Shown one piece after another: positions 27,248 to 50,508 of a DNA stretch of 64,000 nucleotides. The stretch is from Nocardioides sp. (lineage in GTDB: Bacteria; Actinomycetota; Actinomycetes; Propionibacteriales; Nocardioidaceae). The notes under the pieces are model-generated. The model worked only from the letters and a program-made list of their open reading frames with translations, searched no databases and was not told the origin of the DNA. The stretch is from assembly GCF_047607185.1 (NCBI RefSeq), contig NZ_JASGDQ010000086.1, positions 28,478-92,477 on the forward strand, given 5' to 3'. How positions within the stretch are numbered: the stretch's first letter is position 1; each line of letters starts with the position of its first letter. The position numbers were made by a program, and so were the translations under genes.

Positions 27248-29533
<2,286 letters not shown>

Positions 29534-29606
29534 AGTCAGCCGACCAGGGTGACGGTGTCGGGGAAGGCGGCGGCGACTCCCGGCTCACTGGACTCAGAGC
29601 GTGTTC

Positions 29607-32381: not shown

Positions 32382-33991
32382 GACACGGCGACCGGCTGCG
32401 GCACGGCGAGCCGGCCGAGCCACTCGTCGTACTCCTCGACCTCGGCCGCGCAGCGCTGCTCGTCCCAGCCGAGCCGCGGCGCGAGCACGGCGAGGACGGC
32501 GTCGAGCGAGTCGCGGCCGTGGCCGGGCTCGAAGGCGAGCAGCACGCGACGGGCAAGCACGTCGGTCAGGGTACGCGCCAGCTCGTGGCGCACCGCGAAG
32601 AGCAGCTCGGCGCCGATCGCACCCGTGGGCTCGTGGACGACCTCAAGCAGCGTCGGGTCGTCATCGGCCTCCCGTACGACGTCGACGGCGCGGCCGCCGT
32701 AGAGGGCGAGCAGCCGATCCGCGGTCCGGGCCGCGAGGCCGCGGCCGAGCAGGAAGTCCCGCGAGCGACCGAGGTCACCGACGGCTCCCGGCAGCGGCAG
32801 CGAGGCGGTCACGCAGCGTGGCGCCGTGCGGCCGAGCCGCCGGAACGCGTCGTCGACGGCGTCCTCGGCCAGCTGGCGGTAGGTGGTCAGCTTGCCGCCG
32901 ACCACGGTGATCAGGCCGGGCAGCTCGGGTCCGTGGTCGTGCAGCACGTGGCTCCGCGGCACCTCCCACTCCTCGACGTCGGGGGCGTAGGGCAGCGGCC
33001 GGACGCCGGAGTAGGTGAACAGGACGTCACCGGGGGTGAGCCCCGCACCGGGCACCAGCTGGTTGACCTCGTCGAGCAGGTAGGTCATCTCGTCGACGTC
33101 GCAGCGCGCCTCGCCGGGATCCTCCTCGAACCGGCGGTCGGTGGTGCCGATCAGGTAGCGGCCCAGCCACGGGATCACCAGCACCAGCCGGCCGTCGGTC
33201 TTGGACTCGTAGTAGACGACGTCGTCCGGCGCGCCGGGGAACGGGTCGACGACGAGGTGGCTGCCCTTGGTGCCGCCGTTGAGGCGGGGCTGCGGCGGCG
33301 CGCCGCGCCGGAAGATCCGGTCGATCCAGGGTCCGGCGACGTTGAGCACGAGAGGGGCGCGGACCTCGTGCAGCTCGTCGGTGGTGGTGTCGCGGTAGCG
33401 CACGCCGACCACCCGGCCGAGCTCGAGCACCGGCTCCTCGACGCGGGCCTTGGTGCGGATCTCGGCACCGTCGCCCAGCGCGGCCAGCGCGACCTCGACG
33501 CAGAGCCGCTCGGCGTACTCGACCTGACCGTCGGTGAACACCGTCGCTCCGCTGAGCCCGTCGGTGCCGATCCCGGCGAAGCGGGCGCGGGTCTCCGCGG
33601 CCGAGAGCACCTCGTGGCGCCGGGTGCTCTTGTCGAAGGAGAGCACGTCGTAGGCGATCATGCCGACCCGGATCAGCCAGGCGGGGCGCCGGTTGTGCCG
33701 GTAGAGCGGCATGATCAGCCGCTTCGGCTTGACCAGGTGCGGCGCCAGCCGGAAGAGCCGCTCGCGCTCGCGCAGCGACTCGCGCACCAGCGCGAAGTCG
33801 CGGTGCTCGAGGTAGCGCAGCCCGCCGTGGACCAGCCGGCCCGACCAGGCCGAGACGCCGCTGCAGAGGTCGTCCTGCTCCAGCAGGAGCACGCGCAGGC
33901 CGCGCAGGGCGGCGTCGCGGGCGATGCCGAGGCCGTTGATCCCCGCTCCCACGACGATCAGGTCGTAGGGCGTGCTCGTCTCGGTCACCAT
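32378..33991 (-). CDS. FAD-dependent glycerol-3-phosphate dehydrogenase/oxidase family protein
   Basis: VVGAGING FAD motif, HGGLRYLE, NVAGPW, KGSH, GVRPL, GGKLTTYR; GGAGAG RBS before ATG 33991. Confidence 0.92.
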   Translation of the reverse strand: MVTETSTPYDLIVVGAGINGLGIARDAALRGLRVLLLEQDDLCSGVSAWSGRLVHGGLRYLEHRDFALVRESLRERERLFRLAPHLVKPKRLIMPLYRHNRRPAWLIRVGMIAYDVLSFDKSTRRHEVLSAAETRARFAGIGTDGLSGATVFTDGQVEYAERLCVEVALAALGDGAEIRTKARVEEPVLELGRVVGVRYRDTTTDELHEVRAPLVLNVAGPWIDRIFRRGAPPQPRLNGGTKGSHLVVDPFPGAPDDVVYYESKTDGRLVLVIPWLGRYLIGTTDRRFEEDPGEARCDVDEMTYLLDEVNQLVPGAGLTPGDVLFTYSGVRPLPYAPDVEEWEVPRSHVLHDHGPELPGLITVVGGKLTTYRQLAEDAVDDAFRRLGRTAPRCVTASLPLPGAVGDLGRSRDFLLGRGLAARTADRLLALYGGRAVDVVREADDDPTLLEVVHEPTGAIGAELLFAVRHELARTLTDVLARRVLLAFEPGHGRDSLDAVLAVLAPRLGWDEQRCAAEVEEYDEWLGRLAVPQPVAVS

Positions 33992-34197
33992 CGGACTCTC
34001 CTTAAGCATCAATATTCATATCATGCATCTACATGTAGTGTAAGTGGCGTCACACCCGGGCTGTCAAGGATCCGCGGCAGCGACGGGGCGGCCAGCAGGC
34101 CGCGTCGCGGCGCAATGCAGGCCGGATCGATCGCCGCTCCCTAGAATGGCCCGGCCCTCCGCACCGGGGTGGCGGCGAACCCGGAGAGGCAGGACCG

Positions 34198-35154
34198 ATG
34201 GCCGACATCGAGAATCAGCGCCTGATGATCAAGGTCGCCCGGCTCTACCACACGCACGGGATGCGGCAGACCGACATCGCCGAGCGGCTGCAGATCTCGC
34301 AGTCGCGGGTCTCCCGGCTGCTGACCCAGGCCGAGGAGGCCGCCATCGTCCGCACCGTCGTGGCCGTGCCCCGGCACGTCCACGCCGAGCTGGAGGAGCA
34401 GATCGAGCGGCTCTACGACGTCAGCGAGGTGCACGTCGTCGACGCCGTGAGCAGCCGGCAGGACGAGCTCAACCGCGACCTGGCCCATGCCATGGCGGCG
34501 CTGCTGAACGAGATCACCGCGGACACCCCGGTCATCGGGTTCACCTCGTGGAGCCAGACGCTGCGCCTCGCCATCGACGCGCTGCAGCCGATGCGCACCC
34601 ACACCGAGCGGGTGGTCGAGCTGCTCGGCGACCTCGGCCCCCCCGACCTCCAGCACGACGCCGCCCGCTCGACGCAGCGCTTCGCCACCCTCACCGGTGC
34701 GCAGCCGGTCTTCCTGCGCACCCCCGGCGTGGTCACCTCGGTGGAGATGAAGGACCTGCTGCTCAGCCGCGATCTCCATGCCCGACAGGCACTGGAGATG
34801 CTCGACTCGATCGATCTCGCCCTGGTCGGCATCGGCGCCAACACGGTGGATCCGGCGCTGAGTCCGGGCGACAACTTCTTCACCGAGGAGCAGTTCGCCG
34901 CCATGCGCGAGCGGGGCGCGGTCGGCGAGGTCTGCCTGCACTTCCTCGACGAGCACGGTGAGCCGATCGCCGACGGCCTGGACGACCTGGTCGTGGGCGT
35001 CACGATGCAGCAGCTGCGATCGGCGCGCCGGCGCTGGGCCGTCGCAGGCGGAGTGCGCAAGCACGAGGCCATCGGCGCGGCGCTGCGCGGCGGCTGGATC
35101 GACACCCTGGTCACCGACGTCGCCACCGGCGAGCACCTGGTCGCCACCGGCTGA
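34198..35154 (+). CDS. SorC/DeoR/LsrR-family sugar-phosphate-binding regulator (copy 1)
   Basis: VARLYH..GMRQTDIA..SRVSRLL HTH plus sugar-binding domain ending GWIDTLVTD; TAGAAT -10 at 34142-47. Confidence 0.93.
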   Translation: MADIENQRLMIKVARLYHTHGMRQTDIAERLQISQSRVSRLLTQAEEAAIVRTVVAVPRHVHAELEEQIERLYDVSEVHVVDAVSSRQDELNRDLAHAMAALLNEITADTPVIGFTSWSQTLRLAIDALQPMRTHTERVVELLGDLGPPDLQHDAARSTQRFATLTGAQPVFLRTPGVVTSVEMKDLLLSRDLHARQALEMLDSIDLALVGIGANTVDPALSPGDNFFTEEQFAAMRERGAVGEVCLHFLDEHGEPIADGLDDLVVGVTMQQLRSARRRWAVAGGVRKHEAIGAALRGGWIDTLVTDVATGEHLVATG

Positions 35155-35207
35155 CACGGCGGCTGACACGGCGGCTGACACGGCGGCTGACGGCAGCTGA
35201 CGGCAGC
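35149..35207. repeat. Short tandem repeat between convergent genes
   Basis: GGCTGACACGGC x3, then two degenerate 10-mers (GGCTGACGGC, AGCTGACGGC); the first unit contains the regulator stop codon. Confidence 0.9.
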
Positions 35208-35214
35208 CCGTGGC

Positions 35215-36942
35215 TCAGTCCGGCCTGCCGTGTCCCGCCATCCGGCGCAGATCGGGGGCGCCCAGCCGGGCCCGCTCGGCGAGCACGTCGTCGTGCAACT
35301 CCTGGGAGGCCCGCTCGGCGGCCACCCGGACCTGATAGGCCTCCACCTCCCGGGCCGTCGTCGCCGCGTCCCAGCCCAGGACCGGGCCGGCGATCTCCGC
35401 GGCGGCCCGGGCGGTCTCGATGCCGCGGTGGCCGGTCTCGACCGAGATGCGAGTGCGGCGGGTGAGCACGTCGTCGAGGTGGAGCGCCCCCTCGTGGGTG
35501 ACCGCGTAGCGGATCTCGGCGCGCAGATACTCCGGCGCGCCCGGCATCGGCTCGAGCAGGGTGGCGTCCTCGACGGCGACCACCTCGGTGAGCAGGGTGC
35601 CGTAGCGGCGCAGCAGCCGGTCGATCTGGCCGGCCGGGAGGCCCAGCTCCAGCGCGAGGGAGTCGCGGCGCTCGGGCAGGCCGGCGAATCCCGCGCCGCC
35701 GAGCAGCGGCAGCCGGTCGGTCACCGACGGGGCGAGGTCCCCGCCGAGGTCGTCGGCGCAGGCATCGACGGCGTCGCGAGCCATCACCCGATAGGTCGTG
35801 TACTTCCCGCCGGCCACCGTGACCAGGCCCGGCACCGGCCGGCTCACGGCGTGCTCGCGGGAGACCTTGGCGGTGCTGGCCTCCTCGCCGGCCGAGAGCA
35901 GCGGCCGCAGCCCGGCGTAGACGCCGAGGATGTCGTCGTAGGTCAGCGGCCTGGTCAGCACGGCATTGACCCGGTCGAGCACGTAGTCGATGTCGCGCCG
36001 GCTCGCGGAGGGGTGGGCCAGGTCGAGGTTCCAGTCGGTGTCGGTCGTGCCGACGACCCAGCGGTCGCGCCACGGGATCACGAACAGCACCGACTTCTCG
36101 GTGCGCAGGATCAGCCCCGTCTCGGAGTCGATCCGGTCGCGGGCCACCACCAGATGGACGCCCTTCGAGGCCCGGATCCGGAAGTCGGCAGGGGCCTCGG
36201 CGAGGTCGTGCAGCCGGTCGCTCCACACGCCGGTGGCGCCGATCACCACCCGGGCCCGGACCTCGCACCGCTCGCCCGTGTCGGAGTCACGGAGCACGGC
36301 ACCGGCCACCCGCTCACCCTCGCGCAGCAGCCGCACCACCTCGGTGGAGGTGCGTACGACGGCGCCCTGCGCGGCCGCGGTGCGGGCCACCGTCATGGTG
36401 TGCCGGGCGTCGTCGGTCTGGGCGTCGTAGTAGAGGATGCCGCCGGCCAGCGCCGACCTGCGCAACGACGGGCACCGCCGCAGCGCCGCGGCACGGCTCA
36501 GGTGCCGGTGCCGCGGCAGCGAGGAGCGGCCGCCGAGGGTGTCGTAGAGCAGTAGGCCGGCGCCGACGTAGGGCCGCTCCCAGCGGTGCTGGATCGGGTA
36601 GAGGAAGGGGACCGGCTCCACCAGGTGGGGGGCGATCCGGGTGAGCATCAGCTCCCGCTCGCGCAGCGCCTCGCGCACCAGCGGGAACTCCAGCTGCTCC
36701 AGGTAGCGCAGGCCGCCGTGGAAGAGCTTGCTGGAGCGCGACGAGGTGCCGCTGGCCAGGTCGCGCGCCTCGACGAGCGCGGTGCGCAGGCCGCGCGAGG
36801 CGGCGTCGAGGGCGGCGCCGGCGCCGGTCACGCCGCCGCCGACGACCAGGACGTCGAAACGGCCACCGGCGAGCTCGGCCCAGGCGGCCCGGTGCTCGGC
36901 GGGCCCGAGCCGACCAGGCGTGGGACGGGTGCTGATGGTCAT
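35215..36942 (-). CDS. glpD: Glycerol-3-phosphate dehydrogenase/oxidase (actinobacterial GlpD2-type)
   Basis: VVGGGVTG, SGTSSRSSKLFHGGLRYLE, ASKGVH, AGLRPL, GGKYTTYR. Confidence 0.9.
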   Translation of the reverse strand: MTISTRPTPGRLGPAEHRAAWAELAGGRFDVLVVGGGVTGAGAALDAASRGLRTALVEARDLASGTSSRSSKLFHGGLRYLEQLEFPLVREALRERELMLTRIAPHLVEPVPFLYPIQHRWERPYVGAGLLLYDTLGGRSSLPRHRHLSRAAALRRCPSLRRSALAGGILYYDAQTDDARHTMTVARTAAAQGAVVRTSTEVVRLLREGERVAGAVLRDSDTGERCEVRARVVIGATGVWSDRLHDLAEAPADFRIRASKGVHLVVARDRIDSETGLILRTEKSVLFVIPWRDRWVVGTTDTDWNLDLAHPSASRRDIDYVLDRVNAVLTRPLTYDDILGVYAGLRPLLSAGEEASTAKVSREHAVSRPVPGLVTVAGGKYTTYRVMARDAVDACADDLGGDLAPSVTDRLPLLGGAGFAGLPERRDSLALELGLPAGQIDRLLRRYGTLLTEVVAVEDATLLEPMPGAPEYLRAEIRYAVTHEGALHLDDVLTRRTRISVETGHRGIETARAAAEIAGPVLGWDAATTAREVEAYQVRVAAERASQELHDDVLAERARLGAPDLRRMAGHGRPD

Positions 36943-36963
36943 GGCTGCTCCTCCTGGAGGCGA

Positions 36964-37815
36964 TCAGTCCGAAGCGTGGCGGCGGGCCAGGACCAGGCCG
37001 GCCAGTTGCGGCCAGGCGGTCGTGGCCCAGGGGCCGAAGGGGGTCTCGCCGGCGCTGACGCAGGCCGTAGCAGCCTCCGGGTCGACCCAGAGGAACGAGC
37101 CGGACTGGCCGAAGTGGCCGAAGGTCGCCGGGCTGGCGGTGGGAGCGGTCCAGTGCGGGCTCTTGGTGCCCCGGATCTCCAGGCCGAGCCCCCAGTCGTT
37201 GGGGTCCTGCCGGCCGAAGCCCGGGAGGATGCCGGCCAGCCCGGGAAAGGTCGTGGTGGCGGTGGCCCGCACCAGGTGGGCCGGCAGCCGCCGCGGCGCG
37301 AGCAGCTCCCGCGCCAGCAGGGCGAGGTCGCCGACCGGTCCCTGGCAGCCGTGGGCCGGCGAGCCGTGCAACACGGTGCCGGTCATCCCCAGCGGGGTCA
37401 GCACGGTCTCGGCCAGCAACTCGGCGAAAGGCCGGCCGGCCCGGGCCGCGACCCGGTCGGCGAGCAGTTCGATGCCGCGGTTGGAGTAGATCCGCCGACG
37501 GCCCGGCGCGGCGACGATCCGGTCCTCGTCGAAGGCGACCCCGGAGGCGTGGGCCAGCAGGTGCCGGACGGTGGCCCCGGGCGGGCCGGCCGGCTCGTCG
37601 AGGTCGAGGAGGCCGGCATCGGCGGCGAGGAGGGTGGTCAGCGCGGCCAGGATCTTGGTCACCGATGCCCAGCGACATGGCGTCGTCAGGTCGCCGGCCG
37701 AGGCCACCACGCCGTCGGCGTCCAGTACGGCGACGCCGGCGGCCCCTGGCCAGGCCGTGAGCTCCTCGGCCAGGAGGCCGGCCAGCACCGGGTCAGGCTG
37801 ATTCGAGGTGACCAC
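36964..37815 (-). CDS. Serine hydrolase (beta-lactamase class C / PBP-like fold)
   Basis: ASVTK (SxxK), HLLAHASG, YSN, GHFGQSG. Start uncertain. Confidence 0.88.
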   Translation of the reverse strand: MVTSNQPDPVLAGLLAEELTAWPGAAGVAVLDADGVVASAGDLTTPCRWASVTKILAALTTLLAADAGLLDLDEPAGPPGATVRHLLAHASGVAFDEDRIVAAPGRRRIYSNRGIELLADRVAARAGRPFAELLAETVLTPLGMTGTVLHGSPAHGCQGPVGDLALLARELLAPRRLPAHLVRATATTTFPGLAGILPGFGRQDPNDWGLGLEIRGTKSPHWTAPTASPATFGHFGQSGSFLWVDPEAATACVSAGETPFGPWATTAWPQLAGLVLARRHASD

Positions 37816-38452
37816 GGAGATCGGCGAGGAAGGCGGCGCCGGTGGCGCCGTCCACCGCACGGTGATCGCAGGTGAGGGTGAGCTCGGCGATCGGCCGCCA
37901 GGCCGGGTCGCCGCCGTTCCAGACCTGCCGCTGCGTCGTCGTGCCCACCGCGAGGATGGCGACCTGCGGCACGTTGAGGATCGCGTCGAACCGGTCGATC
38001 CCCATCATGCCCAGGTTGGAGACGGTGAAGGTGCCGCCGGTGACGTCGGCCATCTGCAGCCGGCCCTCGCGGGCCCGGCTGGTGACGTCGCGGCGGGCCG
38101 CGGCCATCGCGGTGAGGTCGAGCGCCTCGACGCCGTGCACGACCGGCACCATCAGCCCGGCCTCGGTCGCCACCGCGATGCCGAGGTTGACCGAGGCGAA
38201 GGAGGTCACCGCCTCCTCGCCGTAGTGGGCGTTGATGCCGGGGTGCGCCAGGAGTGCCCGGGCACAGGCCAGCAGCAGGGCGTCGGTCACGGTCGCGCCC
38301 GGCACCCGGTCCTTGACCCCGAGCGCCGCGGTCATGTCGGCGGCGACGGTGAGGTGGAAGACCGGCGCCTCCCAGGCGGTCACCATCCGCCGGGCCGCCG
38401 TACGACGGATGCCCTTGAGCGGGGTGAGGGTGCCGTCCTCGGACACGGTCAT
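37793..38452 (-). CDS. Stand-alone 2-oxo-acid dehydrogenase E2 acyltransferase catalytic domain (no lipoyl or PSBD domain)
   Basis: GGTFTVSNLG, AILNVPQVAIL, DHRAVDGA catalytic motif; about 219 aa; ATG overlaps the aldolase stop. Confidence 0.92.
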   Translation of the reverse strand: MTVSEDGTLTPLKGIRRTAARRMVTAWEAPVFHLTVAADMTAALGVKDRVPGATVTDALLLACARALLAHPGINAHYGEEAVTSFASVNLGIAVATEAGLMVPVVHGVEALDLTAMAAARRDVTSRAREGRLQMADVTGGTFTVSNLGMMGIDRFDAILNVPQVAILAVGTTTQRQVWNGGDPAWRPIAELTLTCDHRAVDGATGAAFLADLRGHLESA

Positions 38453-39309
38453 GCCGAGACCCGTGCGCTCGGCGCCTGGCCGGCGCAGCCGTAGAGCTTC
38501 ATCTTCTCCACGGTCGCGGCGATCATCCGCTCGCGGCCCTCGGCCACGGCCTCCTCGAACTGCCGGTCGCCCTGCTCCCAGACCGCTTCGATGCCGGCCC
38601 GGAACGCGTGCCGCAGGTCGGTGTCGGCGTTGAGCTTGGCGACGCCGGCCGCCATCGCCGCCCGGACCTCGTCCGGCGGCAGGCCGGAGGCGCCGTGGAG
38701 CACCAGCGGGATGCCGGTGGCTGCCTTGATCTGACCGATCCGCTCGATGTCGAGCGGCTGGGGCGCGGTGAGCGGCACGCCGTGGACGATGCCCACCGAG
38801 ACCGCGAGGTAGTCCACGCCGGTCTCGGCGACGAACCGCTCGGCCTCGGCGACGTCGGTGTAGTAGGAGGACCAGTCGACCTGCTGGTCCGCGTCCGGGA
38901 TCTTGCCGAGCTCGGCCTCGACCGGGATGCCGAAGTCGTGGGCGATCTCGACGATCCGCCGGGTGCTGCGGATGTTCTCCTCGAACGGCAGGTGCGCGCC
39001 GTCGTACATGACGGAGGTGAAGCCGAGCCTGATCGCCTCCAAGACCTCGTCCCACGGGCCGTGGTCGAGGTGGATGACGTAGTCGGCGGAGGACTCCTCG
39101 GCGACCCGCCTGGTCATCTCGTAAGCCTTGGCCAGCCCGAGGTGGGGGACGATGGCCCGGCCGACCTGGAGGAAGACCGGTGCGCTCGCCTGCTCCGCCG
39201 CACGCACCAGCGCCTCGGTGGTCTCGACGCTGTGCATGTTGAAGGCGCCGACGGCGTAGCCGCCGGACACCGCGTCCTGGATGAGGCCGCGCGGGTCGAC
39301 CTGCGTCAT
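38449..39309 (-). CDS. Class II (Zn) ketose-bisphosphate aldolase, Fba/GatY-like
   Basis: VGAFN, HLDHG, SVMYDG, EAELG, VHG, LVLHGASG, KLN. Confidence 0.93.
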   Translation of the reverse strand: MTQVDPRGLIQDAVSGGYAVGAFNMHSVETTEALVRAAEQASAPVFLQVGRAIVPHLGLAKAYEMTRRVAEESSADYVIHLDHGPWDEVLEAIRLGFTSVMYDGAHLPFEENIRSTRRIVEIAHDFGIPVEAELGKIPDADQQVDWSSYYTDVAEAERFVAETGVDYLAVSVGIVHGVPLTAPQPLDIERIGQIKAATGIPLVLHGASGLPPDEVRAAMAAGVAKLNADTDLRHAFRAGIEAVWEQGDRQFEEAVAEGRERMIAATVEKMKLYGCAGQAPSARVSA

Positions 39310-39337
39310 CGTGCTCTCCTCTCGACGACCGGGCCGC

Positions 39338-39580
39338 TCAGGCGGTCTCGATATAGGCGACGACGGTGCGCACCTCGACGGTCTCGCCCTCGGGTACGAC
39401 GATCTCGACGAGCGTCCCGCCGGCGGGCGACTCGAGGGTCTCCTCGACCTTCTCGGCCTCCACCTCGGCCAGCGGCTCGTCCTCGGCGACGGTGTCGCCG
39501 ACGGCCTTGAGCCAGCTCGTGATAGTGCCCTCGCTCATGCCCATCCCCCACTGGGGAAGCAGCACCTCGATCTTTGCCAT
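39338..39580 (-). CDS. Stand-alone lipoyl carrier domain (80 aa)
   Basis: LPQWGMGMSEGTITSWLKAVGD..EVEAEKV..ESPAGG; complete lipoyl fold with EAEK lysine and its own stop codon. Confidence 0.92.
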   Translation of the reverse strand: MAKIEVLLPQWGMGMSEGTITSWLKAVGDTVAEDEPLAEVEAEKVEETLESPAGGTLVEIVVPEGETVEVRTVVAYIETA

Positions 39581-39621
39581 GTCGTTGCTCCTGTCGCTTC
39601 TTCGGATGTCTGGTGGGTCGA

Positions 39622-40662
39622 TCAGCGGGACGCGAGCCGCTCGCGGGCCGCGTCGTCGGCCGGCGCGAAGCCGACCACCCGGCGGACGGCGTCGGCGATG
39701 CCCGCCCGGCTGGGGTAGAGCTGCTTCTCCAGCGCGGGGCTGAAGGGGATCTGCGTGTCGGGCGTGGTGACCCGGACGATCGGCGCGCGCAGCGAGGCGA
39801 ACGCCTCCTCGGCGACGATCGCCGAGATCTCGGCGGCGGCCGAGCAGGTGCGGTGCGCCGGGTCGGCCACCACCAGCCGGCCGGTGCGCTGCACCGAGGA
39901 GACCACTGTCTCGGCGTCGAAGGGGACCAGCGTGCGGGGGTCGATGACCTCGACCGAGAGGCCCTCCTCCGCGAACGCCTCGGCGGCGGCCAGCGCCTCC
40001 GGCACCGCGCTGGAGATCGCGACCACGGTGACGTCGTCGCCGGCCCGGGCGATCTTGGCCTGGCCGAACGGGATGCGGTACTCCTCCTCCGGCACCTCGC
40101 CCTTCGAGCCCCACAACATGCAGGCCTCGAAGGTGAGCACCGGGTCCTCGGAGTCGACCGCGGTGCGCAGCAGGCCCTTGGCGTCGTACGGCGTGGCGGG
40201 CACCACGATCTTCAGGCCCGGCACGTTCATGAACATCGGGTAGGGCCGGTCGGAGTGGTGCGCGCCGGTGTTGAGCCCGTAGAACATCGCCGAGCGGAAC
40301 ACCACCGGCAGCGAGGCCTGGCCGCCGAACATGTAGCGGTTCTTGGCCGCCTGGTTCACGAACTGGTCCATGGCCATGTAGAGGAAGCTGGAGTAGGACA
40401 GGTCGACGATCGGGCGCAGTCCGGTCATCGCCGCGCCGATGGCGGCCCCGACGATGACCTCCTCCGAGATCGGGGTGTTGCGGATCCGGTTGGCCCCGAA
40501 CATCTGCAGGAAGTCGCCCTTGTCCTGGCGCGACTTGCCGGCGCCGGTGGTGCCGTAGACATTGGCCTCGACGTCCTCGCCGATGATCACGACGCGGTCG
40601 TCGGACTCCATCGCCTCGCGCTGGGCGGCGCCGATGGCGCCGAGGTAGCTCATCACGGTCAT
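39622..40662 (-). CDS. ThDP-dependent dehydrogenase E1 beta subunit
   Basis: IIGEDV, NTPISEE, HHS, LKIVVP.TPYDAKGLL, IDPRTLVP. Confidence 0.94.
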   Translation of the reverse strand: MTVMSYLGAIGAAQREAMESDDRVVIIGEDVEANVYGTTGAGKSRQDKGDFLQMFGANRIRNTPISEEVIVGAAIGAAMTGLRPIVDLSYSSFLYMAMDQFVNQAAKNRYMFGGQASLPVVFRSAMFYGLNTGAHHSDRPYPMFMNVPGLKIVVPATPYDAKGLLRTAVDSEDPVLTFEACMLWGSKGEVPEEEYRIPFGQAKIARAGDDVTVVAISSAVPEALAAAEAFAEEGLSVEVIDPRTLVPFDAETVVSSVQRTGRLVVADPAHRTCSAAAEISAIVAEEAFASLRAPIVRVTTPDTQIPFSPALEKQLYPSRAGIADAVRRVVGFAPADDAARERLASR

Positions 40663-41645
40663 GCGGTCACTCCGATCGGCTCGGTGTAGAGGTCCTGGAA
40701 GGCGATGGCGGGGTCGGGGAAGGGACTCTCGTCGGTGAACCGGACGGCCTCCTCGACCTCGGCGCGCACCTCGGCGTCGAGCCGGTCCAGCTCCTCCTCG
40801 GTGGCGATGCCGTCGGCGACCAGGCGCTGCCGGAACAGCACGATCGGGTCGCGCTCGACCCAGGCCGCGCGCTCCTCGGCGTTGCGGTAGTCGGTGCCGA
40901 GCCGGAGCCCCTCGGAGTGCTCGTTGAAGCGGTAGGTGACGACCTCGACCAGGGTCGGGCCCTCGCTGCGGCGGGCTCGCTCCACGGCCTCGTGCACGGC
41001 GTCGTACACCGCGAGGACGTCCTGGCCGTCCTCGACCCGGACGCCAGGGATGCCGAAGCCGGCGGCGCGCTCGGCGATGACCCCGGAGGTGACGGTGTGC
41101 GCGGGGGTGGAGAGCGCGTACTGGTTGTTCTCGCAGAGGAAGACGACCGGCAGGCTCCAGACGCCGGCGAGGTTCATCGCCTCGTAGAGGCAGCCCTGGT
41201 TGGCGGCGCCGTCGCCGAAGAAGGCCAGCGACACCTTGCCGTTGCCGAGCACCCTGCTGGAGAGAGCCGCGCCGGTGGCGATCGGGATGGAGGAGCCGAC
41301 GATGCCGGACTCCCCGAGGCTGCCGACCGCGAAGTCGGCCAGGTGCAGCGAGCCGCCCTTGCCGCCACAGACGCCGGTGGCCTTGCCGACCAGCTCGGCC
41401 ATCAGCGGCCCGAGCGGCGAGCCCTTGCCGATGGGGTGGCCGTGGCTGCGGTGGTTGCCGGTCATGTAGTCCTGGCCGCCCAGTGCCATGCAGGCGCCGA
41501 CGACCTGGGCCTCCTGGCCGATGCTGGTGTGCACCGTCCCGGGGATCTGGCCGCGCTTGACCATCTTGGAGGCGCGCTCGTCGAAGTAGCGGATGCGAAG
41601 CATCCGGCGCTGCATCTCCAGCAGCACTGTGGGTGGAAGCGTCAT
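40659..41645 (-). CDS. ThDP-dependent dehydrogenase E1 alpha subunit (acetoin dehydrogenase-like)
   Basis: GQEA, NHRSHGH, GKGGSLH, GDGAANQG...ENNQYA ThDP motif. Confidence 0.94.
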   Translation of the reverse strand: MTLPPTVLLEMQRRMLRIRYFDERASKMVKRGQIPGTVHTSIGQEAQVVGACMALGGQDYMTGNHRSHGHPIGKGSPLGPLMAELVGKATGVCGGKGGSLHLADFAVGSLGESGIVGSSIPIATGAALSSRVLGNGKVSLAFFGDGAANQGCLYEAMNLAGVWSLPVVFLCENNQYALSTPAHTVTSGVIAERAAGFGIPGVRVEDGQDVLAVYDAVHEAVERARRSEGPTLVEVVTYRFNEHSEGLRLGTDYRNAEERAAWVERDPIVLFRQRLVADGIATEEELDRLDAEVRAEVEEAVRFTDESPFPDPAIAFQDLYTEPIGVTA

Positions 41646-41740
41646 GCCATCCTCACTTGGGTATTTATTCATTATTCGCATTTTCATGCTACGCGGCGTG
41701 CGCAGCAGTGACAAGAACCGCGCCGGTCGCTCTCGCGGCC

Positions 41741-42766
41741 TCAGGGTGCGGGGCTCTGAGGTGGGCTCTGAGGTGGGCCCTGCGGCGGTGGCGCCGTAGC
41801 GAGGTACGCCGCGGTGACCCGGTCGGTGACCAGCACGTCGACCCAGCCGCCGCGCAGCGCGGCCTCGATCGGCCGGTGCTTCTCGACTCCCCCGGCCACC
41901 ACGATCCGGCGCCGGGCCCGGCCGATATTGGCCAGCGTGCAGCCGACGACCAGGTCGTCCAGCGGCGTGAGGACCGCCGCGCCGCTGGCGTCCAGGAAGC
42001 GCTGGTCGAGCTGGCCGACCGCGCCGTCGGCCCGGGCCTGGGCGAGTTGGTCGTCGGTGAAGTAGCTCTCGCCCGGCTCCAGGCCGCTGTGCACCGCCGC
42101 CGGGCCGACCCCGACGAAGGCGACGTCGACCTGGTCGAGCAGGCCGAGCGCGCGTCGTACATGGGGGTCGGCCAGCACCGCGGCGCGGATCTCGGGCGTC
42201 GAGGTGACGCCCGGGGTTCGCAGGAAGACGGCGTCGGCGCCGAGCGCGCGCGCCATCGCCCGCGTCGACCGCGCGGCCGCATGCTGGAGCAGCGGCGAGC
42301 CCAGGTCGCCGATCATCTCCACGACGTACCTCGTCGTGGGCCGGCCGGCGAACCTGACCACGCCGGCCATCTCCTGCAGGGTCCGGCTCCACGAGGTGTA
42401 GCCGACGATCTCGGCGCTCAGCCCGGCCTCGCCCAGGTAGCGGGCGGCGGCACGGCCGAGCCCGGCGGCGGGGTCGACCACCGCCGGATCGAGGTCGACG
42501 ACATGGACCTCGGCAAGGTCGTAGCGGCGCTCGAGCTCCTCCTCGAGCTCGGGATCGAGCCCGTCGGGCACGGCGATGACGGTCGTGACCAGCCCCTGCC
42601 GCTCAGCCTGCTGCAGCACCCGCGAGACCCGCGCCTGCGAGATGCCGAGGCGAGCGCCGATGTCGCGCTGGCGCAGCCCGTGGACGTGGTAGAGCCGGGC
42701 GGCGGCGACCATGAGCCGGACCAGGTCGGGATCGGAAGGTCGCGGCGCCGGCGTGGTGGCTGCCAT
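41741..42766 (-). CDS. SorC/DeoR/LsrR-family regulator (copy 2)
   Basis: Same architecture as copy 1 (ARLYH, SRV, TSWSRTL, VFLRTPGV, GWVDVLVTD). Confidence 0.93.
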   Translation of the reverse strand: MAATTPAPRPSDPDLVRLMVAAARLYHVHGLRQRDIGARLGISQARVSRVLQQAERQGLVTTVIAVPDGLDPELEEELERRYDLAEVHVVDLDPAVVDPAAGLGRAAARYLGEAGLSAEIVGYTSWSRTLQEMAGVVRFAGRPTTRYVVEMIGDLGSPLLQHAAARSTRAMARALGADAVFLRTPGVTSTPEIRAAVLADPHVRRALGLLDQVDVAFVGVGPAAVHSGLEPGESYFTDDQLAQARADGAVGQLDQRFLDASGAAVLTPLDDLVVGCTLANIGRARRRIVVAGGVEKHRPIEAALRGGWVDVLVTDRVTAAYLATAPPPQGPPQSPPQSPAP

Positions 42767-42767
42767 G

Positions 42768-43568
42768 TCAGGCCACCGCCGAGGCGAGAAGCTCGTCGAT
42801 CCGGTGCAGCACCCAGGTCGGTCGCCGCCGCGCGGGCAGCGCGGCCACCATCTCCTCGGTGCTCTCCCCCGTCAGCACGAGCGCGGAGTCCAGGCCGGCG
42901 TCCACCGCCATGGCGATGTCGGTGTAGAGCCGGTCGCCCACCATCACACACTCGGCCGCGTCGAGACCGACGACCCGCAGCGCGGTCTCCAGCATCAGCG
43001 GCGACGGCTTCCCGACGTTGGCCTCGCAGCGCACGCCGGTGCTCGCCTCGATGGCCGCGATCACCGCCGCCGCGTCGGGCTCGCCGCGACCGCCCGGGAA
43101 TGGGCAGTAGGCGTCGGGGTTGGTGGCCACCAGCCGGGCCCGGCCATGCTGCCAGAGCGCGTCGAAGGCGATCTGGAGCTTGCGGTAGTCGAAGCCGCGG
43201 TCGTAGCTGGCCACGACGATGTCGATCTCCTCGGGCCGCTCGCTCAGCCGGAGGCCGGCGGCCTCGATGGCGCGGGCCAGCGGCGGCTCGCCGATCACGA
43301 ACACGGCGGCGTCCGGGGCCTCGGCGCGCAGCCAGGCGGCCATCGTCACGACCGGGTTCACGATGTGCGTCGTCGGGGTCGGCAGGCCGAGACCGGAGAG
43401 CTTCTCGGCGTACATCCGCGGGTCGCGGGTCGGGTTGTTGGACAAGAAGAGCGTCTCGCGGCCCTGCTCGCGCAGCGTGTGGACCAGCTCGTAGGCGCCC
43501 GGCAGCAGCTCGTCGCCCAGGTAGATGGTGCCGTCGAGGTCGAAGAGATAGCCCTGGTAGCCCCTCAC
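42768..43568 (-). CDS. HAD-IIA phosphatase (NagD/AraL-like)
   Basis: FDLDGT, LSNN, ATNPD, GKP, MVGDRLYTD; GTG start overlaps the kinase stop. Confidence 0.92.
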   Translation of the reverse strand: MRGYQGYLFDLDGTIYLGDELLPGAYELVHTLREQGRETLFLSNNPTRDPRMYAEKLSGLGLPTPTTHIVNPVVTMAAWLRAEAPDAAVFVIGEPPLARAIEAAGLRLSERPEEIDIVVASYDRGFDYRKLQIAFDALWQHGRARLVATNPDAYCPFPGGRGEPDAAAVIAAIEASTGVRCEANVGKPSPLMLETALRVVGLDAAECVMVGDRLYTDIAMAVDAGLDSALVLTGESTEEMVAALPARRRPTWVLHRIDELLASAVA

Positions 43569-45076
43569 GAGGTCACCTCCGCGAGCCGGGCGAACAGGGC
43601 GCGGTTGGCGGGGTAGATGTCGCGATAGACGTCGTAGAGCCGGTCGTAGGTCGCGGCGGCCGGCGCGCCGGGGTCGAACCACGCGCCCGACCCGCTCATC
43701 GCCGCGACCGCGGCGGGGATCGAGTCGTGGACGCCGACCGCGGCCGCGGCAAGGATGCCCGCGCCGAGGCAGGTGCTCTCGGGCTCGCGGACGATGTCGA
43801 CCCGGCGATGCATCACGTCGGCGATGATCTGGCACCAGACCGCGCTCCGCGCGCCGCCGCCCAGCACCACGATGTCGTCGATCGCGGTGCCCAGGGCCGC
43901 CTCCGTGCCCGAGGTGAGGAAGCGCTGCTCGAGCGCGATGCCCTCCAAGAGCGCACGGTAGACGTGCGCCTTGCCGTGGATGCCCGAGAGCCCGAGCAGC
44001 ACGCCGCGAGCGCTGTGGTCCCAATAGGGGGTGAGCGCGCCCGTCCAGTAGGGCAGCGCCAGCAGGCCCTCGGCGCCGGGCGGCAGGTTGGCCGCGGCGG
44101 TCTCCAGCACCTGCTCGGGGGTGAGGTCGAGACCGAGCACCCGGGAGTCGACACCGGAGAACTTCTCGACGAACCAGCTCAGGTTGAAGGTGCCGCCGCC
44201 GATGAAGGTCTCCAGCGTGTACGCCGCGGGGATCGCCGAGGCCAGGGTGCGGAACTCACGGCCGAAGGCGTAGCCGTCGCTGTGGGTGCCCGAGACGATG
44301 CCGGAGCCGAGGTTGAGATAGGCCCGGCCGGTGGTGGTCACCCCCGAGCCGAGCTGGGCGCACTGGCCGTCGCCGGCGCCGGCGACCACGGGAAGCCCCG
44401 CCGGCAGGCCGAGGTCACGGGCGACGTCGTCGGTGACGGTGCCGAGGATGCTGCCGGGCGGGCACAGCTCGCTGAACTGGTCGCGGCCCAGCCCGGCCTC
44501 GGCGAGGAGGCCGTCGTCGTAGTCGAAGGTGGCCATGTCGACGACGCCCAGCGGATCCGCGCTGGCCCAGGACGTCACCCACGCTCCGGTCAGCCGGTGG
44601 ACCAGGAAGCCGTGCACGTCGACGACCTTGCCGGTGCGGGCGATCGTCTCGGGTTCGTGGGCGGCGAGCCAGAGCAGCTTGTACCAGGCCGGCGTGGTGT
44701 TCGCGGGCTTGCCGGTGATCCGGTGGACCTCGTCGGTGCCGTGCTTGCGCACCTCCTCGGTGGCCCGGGTGTCGAGCCAGAGCATCGCCGGCCGCAACGG
44801 CTTGCCGGCCGGGTCGAGGCAGACGAAGGACTCCCGCTGATGGGTCAGGCAGATGGCGCGCAGCCGCGAGGTGTCGACGGTCTGCACCGCCCGGCGGATC
44901 GCCGTACAGGCCGCGGCCCACCAGTCCTCGGCGTTCTGCTCGCCCCAGCCGGGTCGCGGCTGGGCCAGCTCGAAGGCGCGGCGGTCCTGGGACTGGACCT
45001 CGCCCACCGCGTTCCACACGACGGCCTTCGCGGCCGTGGTGGAGCAGTCGACGCCGATCACGTAGTCCTCGGTCAT
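43565..45076 (-). CDS. FGGY carbohydrate kinase (xylulokinase-like)
   Basis: IGVDCSTT, HQRE, WLD, GAGDGQ, LPYWTG, LLEG, LGGG. Confidence 0.92.
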   Translation of the reverse strand: MTEDYVIGVDCSTTAAKAVVWNAVGEVQSQDRRAFELAQPRPGWGEQNAEDWWAAACTAIRRAVQTVDTSRLRAICLTHQRESFVCLDPAGKPLRPAMLWLDTRATEEVRKHGTDEVHRITGKPANTTPAWYKLLWLAAHEPETIARTGKVVDVHGFLVHRLTGAWVTSWASADPLGVVDMATFDYDDGLLAEAGLGRDQFSELCPPGSILGTVTDDVARDLGLPAGLPVVAGAGDGQCAQLGSGVTTTGRAYLNLGSGIVSGTHSDGYAFGREFRTLASAIPAAYTLETFIGGGTFNLSWFVEKFSGVDSRVLGLDLTPEQVLETAAANLPPGAEGLLALPYWTGALTPYWDHSARGVLLGLSGIHGKAHVYRALLEGIALEQRFLTSGTEAALGTAIDDIVVLGGGARSAVWCQIIADVMHRRVDIVREPESTCLGAGILAAAAVGVHDSIPAAVAAMSGSGAWFDPGAPAAATYDRLYDVYRDIYPANRALFARLAEVTS

Positions 45077-46536
45077 CGGGTTGCCTCCGCCGGCTCGGCA
45101 GCGGCCCGGGCGACCGCCTGGGCGGCCCGCGCCAGCACCTCGTCGACGTCCGCGTCGCGCCACCAGCCCAGCAGCATGAGCAGGTCCACCACAGTGACCC
45201 GGTTGCGCATCAGGGCGCAGTTGGCGACGGCCCAGCGCCACAGCTCGGCCGGGACCCGCGGGTCGAGCTCGTCGGGGGTGGCCGGGGCGCCGGCGGCGAG
45301 CAGGCCAGCGGCGATCTCGGCGCTGGGTCGCACCAGCCGACGCAGGCCGGGCTCGTGGGTCGGCCAGCCGGCCAGCAGGCCAGCCAGGCTGGTCGAGGCC
45401 CGCAGCGCGCCGAGCTTGCGCGCGTAGTCGCGCCAGCACTCGGCGGCGATGCCCTCGCCGAGGCCGGCGAACGCCTCCTCGACGCGGCGACGGGCCTGGT
45501 CGGCATCGCAGGCGGCGGCCTCGACACGGGCACCGGGACGCGCCGCCAGCCGTTCGAAGAGCAGCTCCCAGGCGGCTGCCGCCACGACCGCCGCGGCACC
45601 GACCTGGGCGCCGTGCAGGCCCATCGGCTGATGGTGGGCGGTGTGGTGCTGGTCGAGCATGTGGCTGACCAGATGCTCCACGCCCGAGAGCACTGCGGTG
45701 GTGCCGGAGACGCCGGTAACCACACCGCGCAGCGCGAGCGCCTTGGTGAGCGCGGCGACCGAGTCGGGATCCCCGGCCCGTACGCCGGGCGCCCAGGTCG
45801 TCAGGTCCTCGCCGACCATGCCCAGCAGCCGGATCGGGCCCTCGTGGAAGGTCGGATCGGTGCCGGCCAGCGAGGCGAGCCGCCAGTCGGCCGGTGCGGT
45901 CAGCATCGAGGTCATCTCGCCGAAGCCGGCCCGGTTCATCCGCGAAGGCGCCTGCGCGATGGTCTCCGAGTCGGCGACGACCGCGTCCGGCCAGCGCGCG
46001 GGGACGGTGCGCTTGACGCCGTCGCGCAGCAGCACCGAGACGTCGTCGGTGAAGCCGTCGACCGAGGCGGCCGTCTGCACGGTCACCACCACGGGCGGCT
46101 CCGCGCAGCCGGCCGCGGCCAGCTTGCCGATATCGCTGATGGTGCCGCCGCCGAGGGCGACCACCGCCGCAGCGCCGGTGCAGGCCTCGGTCGCCTGCCG
46201 GACCACGTCGTCGACGACGTGGAGCTCGGGGTGGCCGTCGTCGAGCACCACTCGCCGCACGTCGTACCGCTCGGCGAGCCGGTCCTCGACCAGCTGCTTG
46301 ACATCGACGCCGAGGCGCGTCATCGGCACCGGGTCGATCAGCAGGGTGACCGTGGCTGGCTGGTGGGCGGACCCGTCGCCGCCCACCAGCAGCTCGGCCA
46401 CGGTGTCCGCGACCGTCTCGATCGCGCCGGAGCCCAGGACGAGGCGTCGCAGCCCGCAGGCGGCGAGCCGCCCCTCGGGGTCGACCTGTGCGAGCAGGTC
46501 GCCGACCGGATAGACCTCGTGCGTCGGCACGATCAC
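45073..46536 (-). CDS. sn-glycerol-1-phosphate dehydrogenase (AraM/EgsA)-like polyol-phosphate dehydrogenase
   Basis: GGGTISDIGK, TAASVDG, SGVEHLVSH, LHGAQVG (dehydroquinate-synthase-like fold metal ligands). Confidence 0.85.
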   Translation of the reverse strand: MIVPTHEVYPVGDLLAQVDPEGRLAACGLRRLVLGSGAIETVADTVAELLVGGDGSAHQPATVTLLIDPVPMTRLGVDVKQLVEDRLAERYDVRRVVLDDGHPELHVVDDVVRQATEACTGAAAVVALGGGTISDIGKLAAAGCAEPPVVVTVQTAASVDGFTDDVSVLLRDGVKRTVPARWPDAVVADSETIAQAPSRMNRAGFGEMTSMLTAPADWRLASLAGTDPTFHEGPIRLLGMVGEDLTTWAPGVRAGDPDSVAALTKALALRGVVTGVSGTTAVLSGVEHLVSHMLDQHHTAHHQPMGLHGAQVGAAAVVAAAAWELLFERLAARPGARVEAAACDADQARRRVEEAFAGLGEGIAAECWRDYARKLGALRASTSLAGLLAGWPTHEPGLRRLVRPSAEIAAGLLAAGAPATPDELDPRVPAELWRWAVANCALMRNRVTVVDLLMLLGWWRDADVDEVLARAAQAVARAAAEPAEATR

Positions 46537-46572
46537 TCCTTCGGGTTCGTCAGACGAGTCGGTGACGGCTCG

Positions 46573-47658: not shown

Positions 47659-47661
47659 CGG

Positions 47662-49224: not shown

Positions 49225-49254
49225 GGTGCCCTCTCGGGAACGCGGGACCGGGGT

Positions 49255-49281
49255 GGGTGGCCGACCTGCCGCCGGCCACCC
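49255..49281 (-). terminator. Intercistronic stem-loop after the SBP gene
   Basis: GGGTGGCCG / CGGCCACCC 9-bp stem between SBP and ATPase genes. Confidence 0.5.
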
Positions 49282-50301: not shown

Positions 50302-50345
50302 CGAGTCTCTCCTTATGTCACCTGATGACCGAATCACCGTCGGGA

Positions 50346-50361
50346 ATGAATTTTTATTCAT
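50346..50361. promoter_or_regulatory. Candidate SorC-family operator
   Basis: Perfect ATGAAT-TTTT-ATTCAT palindrome upstream of the ABC operon; related sites at 50437-50452 and 34004-34019. Confidence 0.55.
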
Positions 50362-50508
50362 GCCTTTAATGACGATGCTGATAGTTTGTGTCACCCGTCA
50401 CACCCGCGTCAAGGGTTTGGAAATTTCTTTCGATATACGAATGAATATTCGGAGACCGGGCGCGCTCGACGCGCTCCTCGCTGGGACCGACGGCCGCTCT
50501 GCGGAGGG

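Follow-up and report, generated by a model that had tools for sequence, protein, structure and literature searches.

Can the E2 component of a 2-oxoacid-dehydrogenase-like complex be taken apart into two separately encoded proteins, and, if so, on what would such a complex act? The question is raised by a 64,000-nt stretch of DNA from Nocardioides sp. (GCF_047607185.1, contig NZ_JASGDQ010000086.1, positions 28,478-92,477 of the forward strand), which is referred to as the window. On its minus strand, from 41645 to 37793, the genes for E1alpha, E1beta, a lipoyl protein (Lip), a class II aldolase (Ald) and a free E2 catalytic domain (E2cat) follow each other in a tightly packed order. With slightly better than even confidence, we propose that this five-gene core may encode an acetoin-dehydrogenase-like, ketol-cleaving system dependent on thiamine diphosphate (ThDP) and lipoate, in which E2 is resolved into two free proteins and which forms the constant core of a mobile sugar-alcohol island. 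The gene content, the conserved split, the intact catalytic motifs and the co-location with lipoylation, E3 and polyol genes were read directly from the DNA. Ketol cleavage of the acetoin dehydrogenase kind is the most economical reading of the genomic context, and the substrate of the island is most plausibly a tetritol, a pentitol or a close derivative.

The divided E2 and its conservation

A preliminary description of this locus had reported the gene order, a free lipoyl domain of 80 aa, a free E2cat with the motif DHRAVDGA and an overlap between the aldolase gene and the start of E2cat, all of which were confirmed (Table 1). E2cat covers positions 5-226 of the 232 positions of the PF00198 profile. 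The E1alpha and E1beta genes, as well as the aldolase and E2cat genes, overlap by ATGA, and the remaining gaps within the core are 41 and 28 nt. In a domain profile search, no peripheral subunit-binding domain (PSBD; E3_binding) was found in any of the five core proteins, as had been described. The accompanying claim that an E3 (dihydrolipoyl dehydrogenase) gene is missing held for the window only, where a tblastn search with the E3 of a relative gave no match; it failed for alphaproteobacterial and some actinobacterial clusters, which do carry one. Neither a second E2 gene nor a second lipoyl gene was found in the 64-kb window.

Two scans, with one genome taken per species, yielded 160 loci. 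E1alpha was at least 65% identical in 120 of them, which correspond to about 100 distinct contigs once the double-fetched ones were dropped, and Lip and E2cat were separate open reading frames (ORFs) in all 120, a regularity that chance could not nearly explain. The carriers belong to the Actinomycetota (Nocardioides, Kocuria, Arthrobacter/Pseudarthrobacter, Sinomonas, Microbacterium, Cryobacterium, Nakamurella, Geodermatophilus, Streptosporangium, Conexibacter and Acidimicrobiia) and to the Alphaproteobacteria (Paracoccus, Gemmobacter, Palleronia, Rhizobium, Aureimonas and Lichenihabitans), and the identity of E1alpha between the two groups is 69-91%. The best 120 homologues of E2cat were all 213-238 aa long and matched PF00198 alone. 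Lip and E2cat adjoin each other in Glaciibacter (L020) and Streptosporangium (L035), with 20 and 53 nt between them, respectively, and in different frames. Since the halves adjoin in these two loci and yet stay unfused, the split is independent of the inserted gene. The aldolase had been described as inserted between the halves of E2, which is correct for the window, but it is neither the sole possible insert nor an essential one: the commonest layout between the halves is Lip-GlpD-GlpK-Ald-E2cat, and minimal clusters do without the aldolase.

The nearest outgroup, mostly Gaiellaceae (about 40% identity in E1alpha and 50% in E2cat), has an ordinary fused E2 with a linker region of 100-130 residues, which shows where the split arose and that the comparison is able to detect a fusion. 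Among the best 150 representatives of E2 catalytic domains (clustered at 50% identity), about 27 were at most 260 aa long and the rest 290-840 aa, a count that is indicative, as the short ones are indistinguishable from contig-end fragments. It was also considered that the split E2 might be the remnant of a decaying, pseudogenised or non-functional complex, for which only the unusual architecture speaks. This candidate was refuted and its probability is negligible: the halves are clean ORFs in about 100 genomes, the catalytic and lipoyl-lysine motifs are at least 90-95% conserved, and dedicated lipoylation genes are co-located. As two phyla and about 100 genomes show the halves as separate ORFs, the earlier statement that the split is neither a frameshift nor a strain-specific decay stands. 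Judged by these comparisons, the split is genuine, ancient and functional-looking, and the family appears to have spread horizontally.

The island of the window closes with an LplA/LipB-family gene, which overlaps the stop of the GlpK-like gene. Because its product scored 35 bits on PF21948 and matched no NCBIfam model, it is probably a divergent lipoate/octanoate transferase. Of the 120 loci, 58 have an LplA-like gene behind E2cat or GlpK, and 19 bear a lipoyl synthase gene (LipA) in the cluster. The alphaproteobacterial clusters carry lipoyl synthase instead of the LplA-like gene (TIGR00510, 362 bits against a cut-off of 310) and, at their far end, a dihydrolipoyl dehydrogenase (L060; TIGR01350, 512 bits against a cut-off of 409). 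E3 genes lie inside the related clusters L060, L023, L114, L133 and L159, and in three Microbacteriaceae loci E3 directly follows E2cat. Furthermore, a divergent second lineage was found in Arthrobacter agilis, Paeniglutamicibacter, Agreia and Salinibacterium (L019, L022, L023 and L030; e.g. L023, 43-10666), with overall identities of 33-47% (E1 about 42%, Lip 40%, aldolase 33%, GlpD 45% and GlpK 40%). Its genes are arranged as GlpD-Ald-E1a-E1b-Lip-GlpK-SorC, back-to-back with Bla-LipA-E3-E2cat, where Bla is a beta-lactamase-fold hydrolase. Since the same gene set recurs in two lineages, the association is probably functional and not accidental, and a normal lipoyl redox cycle is likely.

Features of the carrier, the acyltransferase and E1

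Lip is strongly conserved in the pattern VLLPQWGMGMSEG...EAEKV...LESPA; its 88 unique orthologues are 77-81 aa long, and the predicted lipoyl-Lys of EAEKV is kept in at least 90% of them. The second-best NCBIfam match of Lip was AcoC (NF011457; 71 bits against a cut-off of 307). The 80-aa protein gave no match to the GcvH family, and PF00364 was the only domain reported. The idea of a GcvH-like lipoyl shuttle was therefore right as to a free carrier but wrong as to kinship, because Lip is an E2-type lipoyl domain and not a relative of GcvH.

E2cat carries, besides DHRAVDGA, the catalytic-Ser motif GGTFTVSNLG, and GGTFT.SNLGM and LTCDHRA.DGA are conserved family-wide. The protein is nearest to the acetyl-transferring E2p, and its alignment with human E2p stops at residue 641 of 647. 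Residues 642-647 of E2p are the C-terminal helix that enters the neighbouring trimer and builds the icosahedral core, and the equivalent turn plays the same role in octahedral cores (PMC12995895). The tails of E2cat in the split family extend 23-31 residues past DHR and are unconserved and mostly polar, whereas the tail of the outgroup is the canonical hydrophobic LE[ED]PGLAL. By the end of the alignment and the comparison of the tails, E2cat is without the C-terminal inter-trimer helix. As linker, PSBD and this helix are all missing, E2cat is probably a free trimer, like the E2p of Corynebacterium, and not a 24- or 60-mer.

E1alpha contains the ThDP motif GDG...NN and the loop His, and its family consensus is extremely conserved. 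In E1beta, the Glu of TPISE and the catalytic His (AHHSD) are present. These ThDP-E1 motifs (GDG...NN, activating Glu and catalytic His) are conserved to at least 95% in the family. The preliminary description had drawn attention to the E1alpha loop, TYRFNEHSEG, which proved to be a real marker of the family (signature TYR..EHSEGL, at least 95% conserved) but by itself holds no substrate information. The YR..EHS loop as a sign of a non-oxoacid substrate was rejected, because the catalytic His is retained and ordinary E1s also differ from each other in this loop.

Compared with the fused outgroup, the family-invariant residues of E1 include alpha E242 (the G-to-E change in YR..EHS), G63/N64 and E112. 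E1beta has a five-residue insertion after the EDV motif with the invariant K43 and R45, and around its catalytic His the family reads AHHSDRPYPM versus AQHSQ..EAW in the outgroup, with beta H135, D138, R139 and Y141 invariant. The extra invariant basic residues near catalytic elements are suggestive, and only suggestive, of a phosphorylated substrate. Moreover, E1beta ends in a variable C-terminal tail of 5-25 residues, which is missing from the fused outgroup. In the Geobacillus E1, the PSBD docks at the C-termini of the beta subunits, and for this reason the tail fits a system without PSBD.

The polyol island and the candidate substrate

The five-gene core sits in a 20-kb island (30115-50394; Table 1). 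The earlier preference for a sugar-linked substrate over pyruvate or branched-chain keto acids was supported by its content, namely FGGY kinases, GlpD-like and sn-glycerol-1-phosphate-dehydrogenase-like (G1PDH-like) enzymes, SorC regulators, an ABC transporter of the ribose type and the aldolase. Across the clusters, E1alpha-E1beta-Lip plus E2cat are the constant part, and the partners are interchangeable front ends. The commonest, front end (a), is a GlpK-like kinase with a GlpD-like dehydrogenase, in the order E1a-E1b-Lip-GlpD-GlpK-Ald-E2cat-LplA-G1PDH-FGGY-HAD. In Sinomonas, Arthrobacter and Microbacterium, the complex has only front end (b) nearby, which is an FGGY kinase with a G1PDH-like dehydrogenase and a HAD phosphatase. 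Front end (c), from four unrelated lineages, comprises a GlpK-like kinase and a short-chain dehydrogenase/reductase (SDR) nearest to butanediol and acetoin dehydrogenases, without aldolase, GlpD or G1PDH; these minimal clusters hold only the transporter, the GlpK-like kinase, the SDR, SorC and E1ab-Lip-E2cat. Each front end is, by predicted function, what the conversion of a polyol to a phosphorylated ketose needs. In type (c), E1-Lip-E2cat is the sole enzyme to follow the ketose (phosphate), which therefore points to ketol cleavage like that of acetoin dehydrogenase and is the strongest argument for it. From the same clusters it follows that the E1 substrate should be the product of a dehydrogenase and a kinase acting on a polyol, and that the aldolase is dispensable for the complex.

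In view of the kinship of this SDR, the complex might instead be a genuine dehydrogenase of acetoin or methyl ketols, with small ketols that bear no phosphate (acetoin, methylacetoin or hydroxy-butanones) as substrates and the sugar genes as mere neighbours. The lipoyl domain is AcoC-like, the SDR of the minimal clusters is nearest to acetoin reductase and butanediol dehydrogenases, and classical AcoABC sets lie nearby in some Rhodobacterales, which would agree with such a function. However, practically all cluster types include at least one FGGY kinase, a sugar-type ABC transporter and SorC regulators; the part of the operon from Lip to E2cat contains GlpD, GlpK and the aldolase; translational coupling spans the whole island; and no acoR/acoX-type genes were seen. 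We thus regard this possibility as very unlikely. The coupling is pervasive across 30888-50394: in addition to the overlaps in the core, ATGA occurs at G1PDH/FGGY and GlpD2/GlpK, and GTGA at FGGY/HAD and GlpK/LplA.

None of the 'glycerol' enzymes of the island (the GlpK-like and both GlpD-like proteins) meets the NCBIfam equivalog cut-off, and the G1PDH-like protein, with 119 bits on NF002022 against a cut-off of 413, is not an equivalog either. For E. coli GlpK, we take the glycerol-binding residues to be R83, E84, W103, Y135, D245 and F270. Throughout the family of the GlpK-like protein, the R, E, W and D are retained, the position of F270 is a conserved Val and that of Y135 is variable. With its substrate pocket altered across the family, the GlpK-like protein is predicted not to be a glycerol kinase. 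A GlpD-type and a G1PDH-type dehydrogenase together would be a fitting pair for polyol phosphates whose configurations beside the phosphate are opposite, and cleavage between C2 and C3 would then erase the remaining stereocentre, which might be a rationale for tetritols. No isomerase of the EryC/EryH/EryI type was seen in the island.

The aldolase gene lies directly before E2cat in about 95 of the 96 loci holding both. The Zn-binding His residues and the phosphate site for dihydroxyacetone phosphate (DHAP) are kept: the motifs IHLDHG, VHG, LHGASG and NADTDLR are conserved and can be aligned with class IIb enzymes of solved structure. The sequence of the mobile loop is IPDADQQ (IP[DN][AV][DG].. 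in the family) versus IGGxED with the proton-abstracting Glu; an acidic residue is always present in this loop, and its position shifts across the family. The protein passes only the generic subfamily model TIGR00167 (224 bits, cut-off 216) and misses all equivalog cut-offs for fructose- and tagatose-bisphosphate aldolases. On these grounds the aldolase is classed as a distinct subfamily with a family-signature loop. That it is catalytically dead was rejected, its Zn ligands and DHAP site appearing intact and the acidic loop residue being always present. No Rosetta-stone fusion of aldolase with E2cat or Lip was found among the best 120 aldolase homologues, which are 282-309 aa long and match PF01116 only.

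The position of the aldolase gene, with its ATGA overlap in the window, would also agree with a complex that oxidises the aldehyde released by the aldolase (glycolaldehyde from a pentulose 1-phosphate or formaldehyde from erythrulose 1-phosphate) to an acyl-CoA and is thus a detoxifying dehydrogenase and not a C-C lyase; the propionibacterial route does yield DHAP and formaldehyde from erythrulose 1-phosphate. Nevertheless, four unrelated lineages carry the complex with no aldolase nearby, and single-protein CoA-acylating aldehyde dehydrogenases already perform such an oxidation. Furthermore, a ThDP carbanion formed from an aldehyde needs deprotonation of a C-H bond, in which known E1 enzymes are poor. 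An aldehyde-oxidising role therefore seems to us distinctly unlikely.

For the favoured ketol cleavage, we infer the substrate class, the order of the steps, the identity of the acyl-CoA and the oligomeric state. A polyol would be imported via the CUT2 ABC transporter and turned into a phosphorylated ketose by a kinase/dehydrogenase pair, the pairs in the window being GlpK-like with GlpD-like and FGGY with G1PDH-like. E1alpha-beta would add ThDP onto the keto carbon and cut the bond to the adjacent carbinol carbon as in acetoin dehydrogenase, whereby an aldehyde would be freed. The two-carbon ThDP adduct would then pass to the lipoyl-lysine of the free carrier, which may be lipoylated by the island-encoded ligase, E2cat would transfer the acyl group to CoA, and the carrier would be reoxidised by the dihydrolipoyl dehydrogenase of the host cell. 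The class II aldolase would handle the ketose phosphate, or a product derived from it, at the level of DHAP. As a candidate for the overall reaction, a ketose phosphate, whether 1-deoxy or ordinary, would be cleaved oxidatively to acetyl- or glycolyl-CoA and an aldose phosphate. The complex might thus act on ketose phosphates as the oxidative counterpart of transketolase/phosphoketolase that the preliminary description had hypothesised.

A redox-neutral course is conceivable but unlikely. E1 would here act on a ketose 1-phosphate (e.g. D- or L-erythrulose 1-phosphate, which the two kinase/dehydrogenase pairs would form from any stereoisomer of a tetritol), and C2-C3 cleavage with loss of the beta-phosphate would give acetyl-ThDP, whose acetyl group would move to the reduced free carrier and on to CoA. 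The net reaction, from ketose 1-phosphate to acetyl-CoA, Pi and an aldehyde, would be phosphoketolase-like and linked to lipoate and CoA, with E3 merely keeping the carrier reduced. The Frey laboratory reportedly observed that 3-fluoropyruvate on the E1 of pyruvate dehydrogenase (PDH) yields acetyl-ThDP, which acetylates dihydrolipoamide.

Several observations weigh against the proposed ketol-cleaving system. No single linear pathway has room for the aldolase, the HAD phosphatase, both second copies (kinase and GlpD) and the beta-lactamase-fold hydrolase. The aldolase keeps an Arg that is presumably the distal-phosphate binder of class IIb enzymes; this would fit a bisphosphate, for which no E1 step is needed. 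The nearest solved relatives of the substrate-binding protein are ribose-binding proteins, with the polyol-binding 4rs3 and 4rsm weaker, although this is not decisive. The trimer-only assembly would follow from a single feature, the loss of the helix. A full-text literature search brought up no account of an E2 divided so that its lipoyl protein is free, nor of any E1/E2 system taking part in the breakdown of polyols, and prior work in subscription journals is possible. None of the public sequencing runs contains the window, at most 6% of the sampled words being matched. Finally, the best profile and structure matches of E1 and E2cat are components of PDH.

The last point speaks for an ordinary 2-oxoacid dehydrogenase that would act on pyruvate, hydroxypyruvate or a small 2-oxoacid from the end of the pathway and was recruited toward acyl-CoA, the split being merely an architectural oddity. 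The best NCBIfam and PDB matches of E1alpha, E1beta and E2cat agree with it, and E3 belongs to some clusters, so that a normal oxidative cycle is expected. However, all PDH equivalog cut-offs were missed by E1alpha (TIGR03182, 322 of 394 bits), E1beta (291 of 454) and E2cat (172 of 445), and E1beta reached 297 bits against a cut-off of 321 with the subfamily model. The minimal clusters, with kinase, SDR and transporter, lack any gene that makes a 2-oxoacid, and residues close to the active site differ invariantly from the fused outgroup. Moreover, the sequence identity of 70-90% across two phyla, always together with polyol genes, argues for a dedicated substrate. We consider a 2-oxoacid dehydrogenase to be rather unlikely.

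Table 1. Features of the core and of the island in the window (scores in bits are given as score/cut-off where both were available; counts refer to the 120 loci)
Feature	Coordinates	Strand	Basis
E1alpha (ThDP-binding; acetoin/pyruvate dehydrogenase type)	40659..41645	-	328 aa; PF00676 E 7e-81
E1beta	39622..40662	-	346 aa; PF02779 + PF02780
Free lipoyl carrier, E2-type lipoyl domain (Lip)	39338..39580	-	80 aa; PF00364 alone, E 2e-19
Class II (Zn) ketose-phosphate aldolase, putative distinct subfamily	38449..39309	-	286 aa; PF01116 E 5e-83
Free E2 catalytic (acyltransferase) domain, E2cat	37793..38452	-	219 aa; PF00198 alone, E 1e-64
Sigma-70-like promoter, TTGTCA-17-TAGCAT	41686..41714	-	sole match in 37500-42000; shuffles mean 0.0
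CUT2-type sugar/polyol ABC substrate-binding protein (RbsB-like)	49297..50394	-	PF13407 E 4e-57; 52/120 loci
ABC ATPase	47662..49224	-	ORF; 58-79% identical orthologues beside cluster
ABC permease	46573..47658	-	ORF; orthologues beside cluster
sn-Glycerol-1-phosphate-dehydrogenase-like (Fe-ADH_2) polyol(-phosphate) dehydrogenase	45073..46536	-	487 aa; PF13685 E 3e-21; 89/120 loci
FGGY kinase no. 2, xylulokinase-like	43565..45076	-	FGGY_N/C; TIGR01312 286/380 bits; 71/120 loci
HAD-IIA (NagD/AraL-like) sugar-phosphate phosphatase	42768..43568	-	PF13344 + PF13242; TIGR01460 passed; 60/120 loci
SorC/DeoR-type sugar-binding regulator 1	41741..42766	-	PF04198 E 8e-45
Beta-lactamase-fold serine hydrolase (SxxK = SVTK, YSN)	36964..37788	-	PF00144 E 3e-27; 4 nt past E2cat stop
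GlpD-like FAD dehydrogenase 1	35215..36942	-	PF01266 + PF16901; NF008899 347/360 bits
SorC/DeoR-type regulator 2, divergent	34198..35154	+	NF053881 186 bits, under cut-off; conserved opposite GlpD2
GlpD-like FAD dehydrogenase 2 (GlpD2)	32378..34012	-	PF01266 + PF16901; NF008899 351/360 bits; 90/120 loci
Glycerol-kinase-like FGGY kinase	30888..32381	-	NF000756 543/498 bits; TIGR01311 514/590 bits
LplA/LipB-family lipoate (octanoate) ligase-like	30115..30891	-	PF21948 35/27 bits; motif AKLVGVGQR

The 95-nt gap upstream of E1alpha (41646-41740) is AT-rich (ATGAAAATGCGAATAATGAATAAATACCC) within a genome of 72% G+C (about 72% for the 64-kb window), carries the promoter-like site of Table 1 and is likely the operator for the adjoining SorC regulator. 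When 37500-42000 was scanned, no terminator-like site was found within the operon. GlpD2 stands between Lip and the aldolase in most relatives. The beta-lactamase-fold hydrolase adjoins E2cat or E3 in L001-L004, L010, L023 and L030 (Kocuria, Nocardioidaceae and the second lineage) and may serve the pathway as a thioesterase or esterase.

Further genes recur beside the clusters of the relatives. A PepD-like Xaa-His dipeptidase (TIGR01893 passed), an epoxide-hydrolase-like alpha/beta hydrolase and a second CUT2 ABC transporter were seen in both phyla, in 22 and 26 loci (e.g. L086 2041-9731, L132 14266-15900 and L007 11367-19625), and in Palleronia these genes run into E1alpha on the same strand. 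In 18 loci, a beta-keto-acid cleavage enzyme gene (BKACE/DUF849, PF05853; e.g. L021 10658-11626) is no more than a few kb away from E2cat or LplA; BKACE enzymes use acetyl-CoA as a co-substrate. In some Rhodobacterales (L100 985-5647, L088 2292-6986 and L053 614-1981), the first gene of a second, classical set of the AcoA/AcoB/AcoC type encodes a DXR-like oxidoreductase (PF21135, 224 bits). This set adjoins the divergent FGGY kinase of the split-E2 cluster and hints at deoxy- or branched-ketose-phosphate chemistry nearby. As markers of the substrate, the PepD-like, epoxide-hydrolase-like, BKACE and DXR-like neighbours were set aside, because they recur in relatives and are absent from the window. 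The island is flanked on one side by genes for a PhaC-type polyhydroxyalkanoate synthase (51327-53129, minus strand) and a PucR-type regulator (53139-54803, minus strand), and on the other by those for a molybdopterin oxidoreductase (27248-29584, minus strand) and an SRPBCC (polyketide-cyclase-fold) protein (29607-30062, minus strand); no link of these flanking genes to the split-E2 system was seen.

Comparison with known systems and biological meaning

The split-E2 system would work like an acetoin or 2-oxoacid dehydrogenase complex, yet, by its predicted domains, it fails two architectural tests that define them, having neither a multidomain E2 with PSBD nor a helix that forms the core. With acetoin dehydrogenase (AcoA/AcoB/AcoC/AcoL) it shares the ThDP-dependent E1alpha-beta heterotetramer, the lipoyl carrier, the predicted transfer of an acyl group to CoA and, in the clusters of some relatives, an E3, and the proposed likeness extends to the chemistry, in which a ketol and not a 2-oxoacid is cleaved. 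Clusters for acetoin dehydrogenase of the Pelobacter type are said to have their own lipoate-synthesis gene. Nevertheless, AcoC is one polypeptide (at L100 4127-5647, a classical lipoyl, PSBD-like and alpha/beta-hydrolase arrangement), whereas the split family has a separate carrier and an E2p-type catalytic domain without PSBD; and the context of acetoin dehydrogenase is butanediol genes, as against sugar-alcohol kinases, dehydrogenases and the aldolase.

The E1alpha-beta type of PDH (Geobacillus and human) provides the best sequence and structure matches, and the ThDP motif, the catalytic His and DHRxxDG are common to both. PDH tethers lipoyl domain, PSBD and catalytic domain on one E2; in contrast, the split-E2 system lacks the covalent link between lipoyl domain and E2, the PSBD and the 642-647 helix, and, unlike PDH, it lies within a polyol island. 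That actinobacterial E2 cores need not be 24- or 60-mers is known from the corynebacterial and mycobacterial PDH-ODH supercomplex with its trimeric or hexameric E2p (PMC12995895). There, however, the lipoyl domains and the PSBD stay on a full-length E2p (AceF/DlaT), whereas the split-E2 system has no full-length E2. The E2 catalytic domain of OdhA, which is without a lipoyl domain, reportedly borrows the lipoyl domain of another polypeptide. GcvH of glycine cleavage and LbpA of sHdr sulfur oxidation are likewise small soluble lipoylated shuttles visited by separate enzymes, and LbpA is accompanied by dedicated lipoate-assembly genes. Both belong to a different protein family, whereas the carrier described here matches PF00364 only and has E1alpha-beta and an E2 acyltransferase as partners.

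Among the tetritol pathways, Brucella EryA/EryB (kinase, then GlpD-type dehydrogenase) and Mycobacterium smegmatis EltD/LerK (dehydrogenase, then kinase) both lead to L-erythrulose 1-phosphate, and in Propionibacterium pentosaceum erythritol is used by a kinase-dehydrogenase-aldolase route, in which erythrulose 1-phosphate gives DHAP and formaldehyde (PMC10733421, PMC4437456). The tetritol loci share with the island an FGGY kinase and a GlpD-type dehydrogenase (or the reverse order), SorC (EryD-like) and a CUT2 transporter, and the aldolase is as in the propionibacterial route. The described tetritol routes, however, have no ThDP/lipoate complex and continue via isomerases to erythrose 4-phosphate or via aldolase to DHAP and formaldehyde.

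In public annotation, members of the family are named pyruvate dehydrogenase E1/E2 and fructose-bisphosphate aldolase, labels that are probably wrong in hundreds of genomes. Textbook complexes rely on a multidomain E2 that is swinging arm, scaffold and acyltransferase at once. The split family, which is large, dismantles this design: its lipoyl protein is diffusible, and its acyltransferase has lost all elements for assembly. In some relatives, one cluster unites E1, E3 and private genes for lipoylation. The family is thus a natural test of the need for channelling and tethering. As an invariant core, the complex belongs to a sugar-alcohol island that is common in Actinomycetota from soil, cold habitats and lichens, in Paracoccaceae and in Rhizobiales. 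If a ketose phosphate is indeed cleaved directly to a C2 acyl-CoA, this would be a new entry of polyols into central metabolism by which pyruvate is bypassed, and it would be of interest for the design of carbon-conserving pathways.

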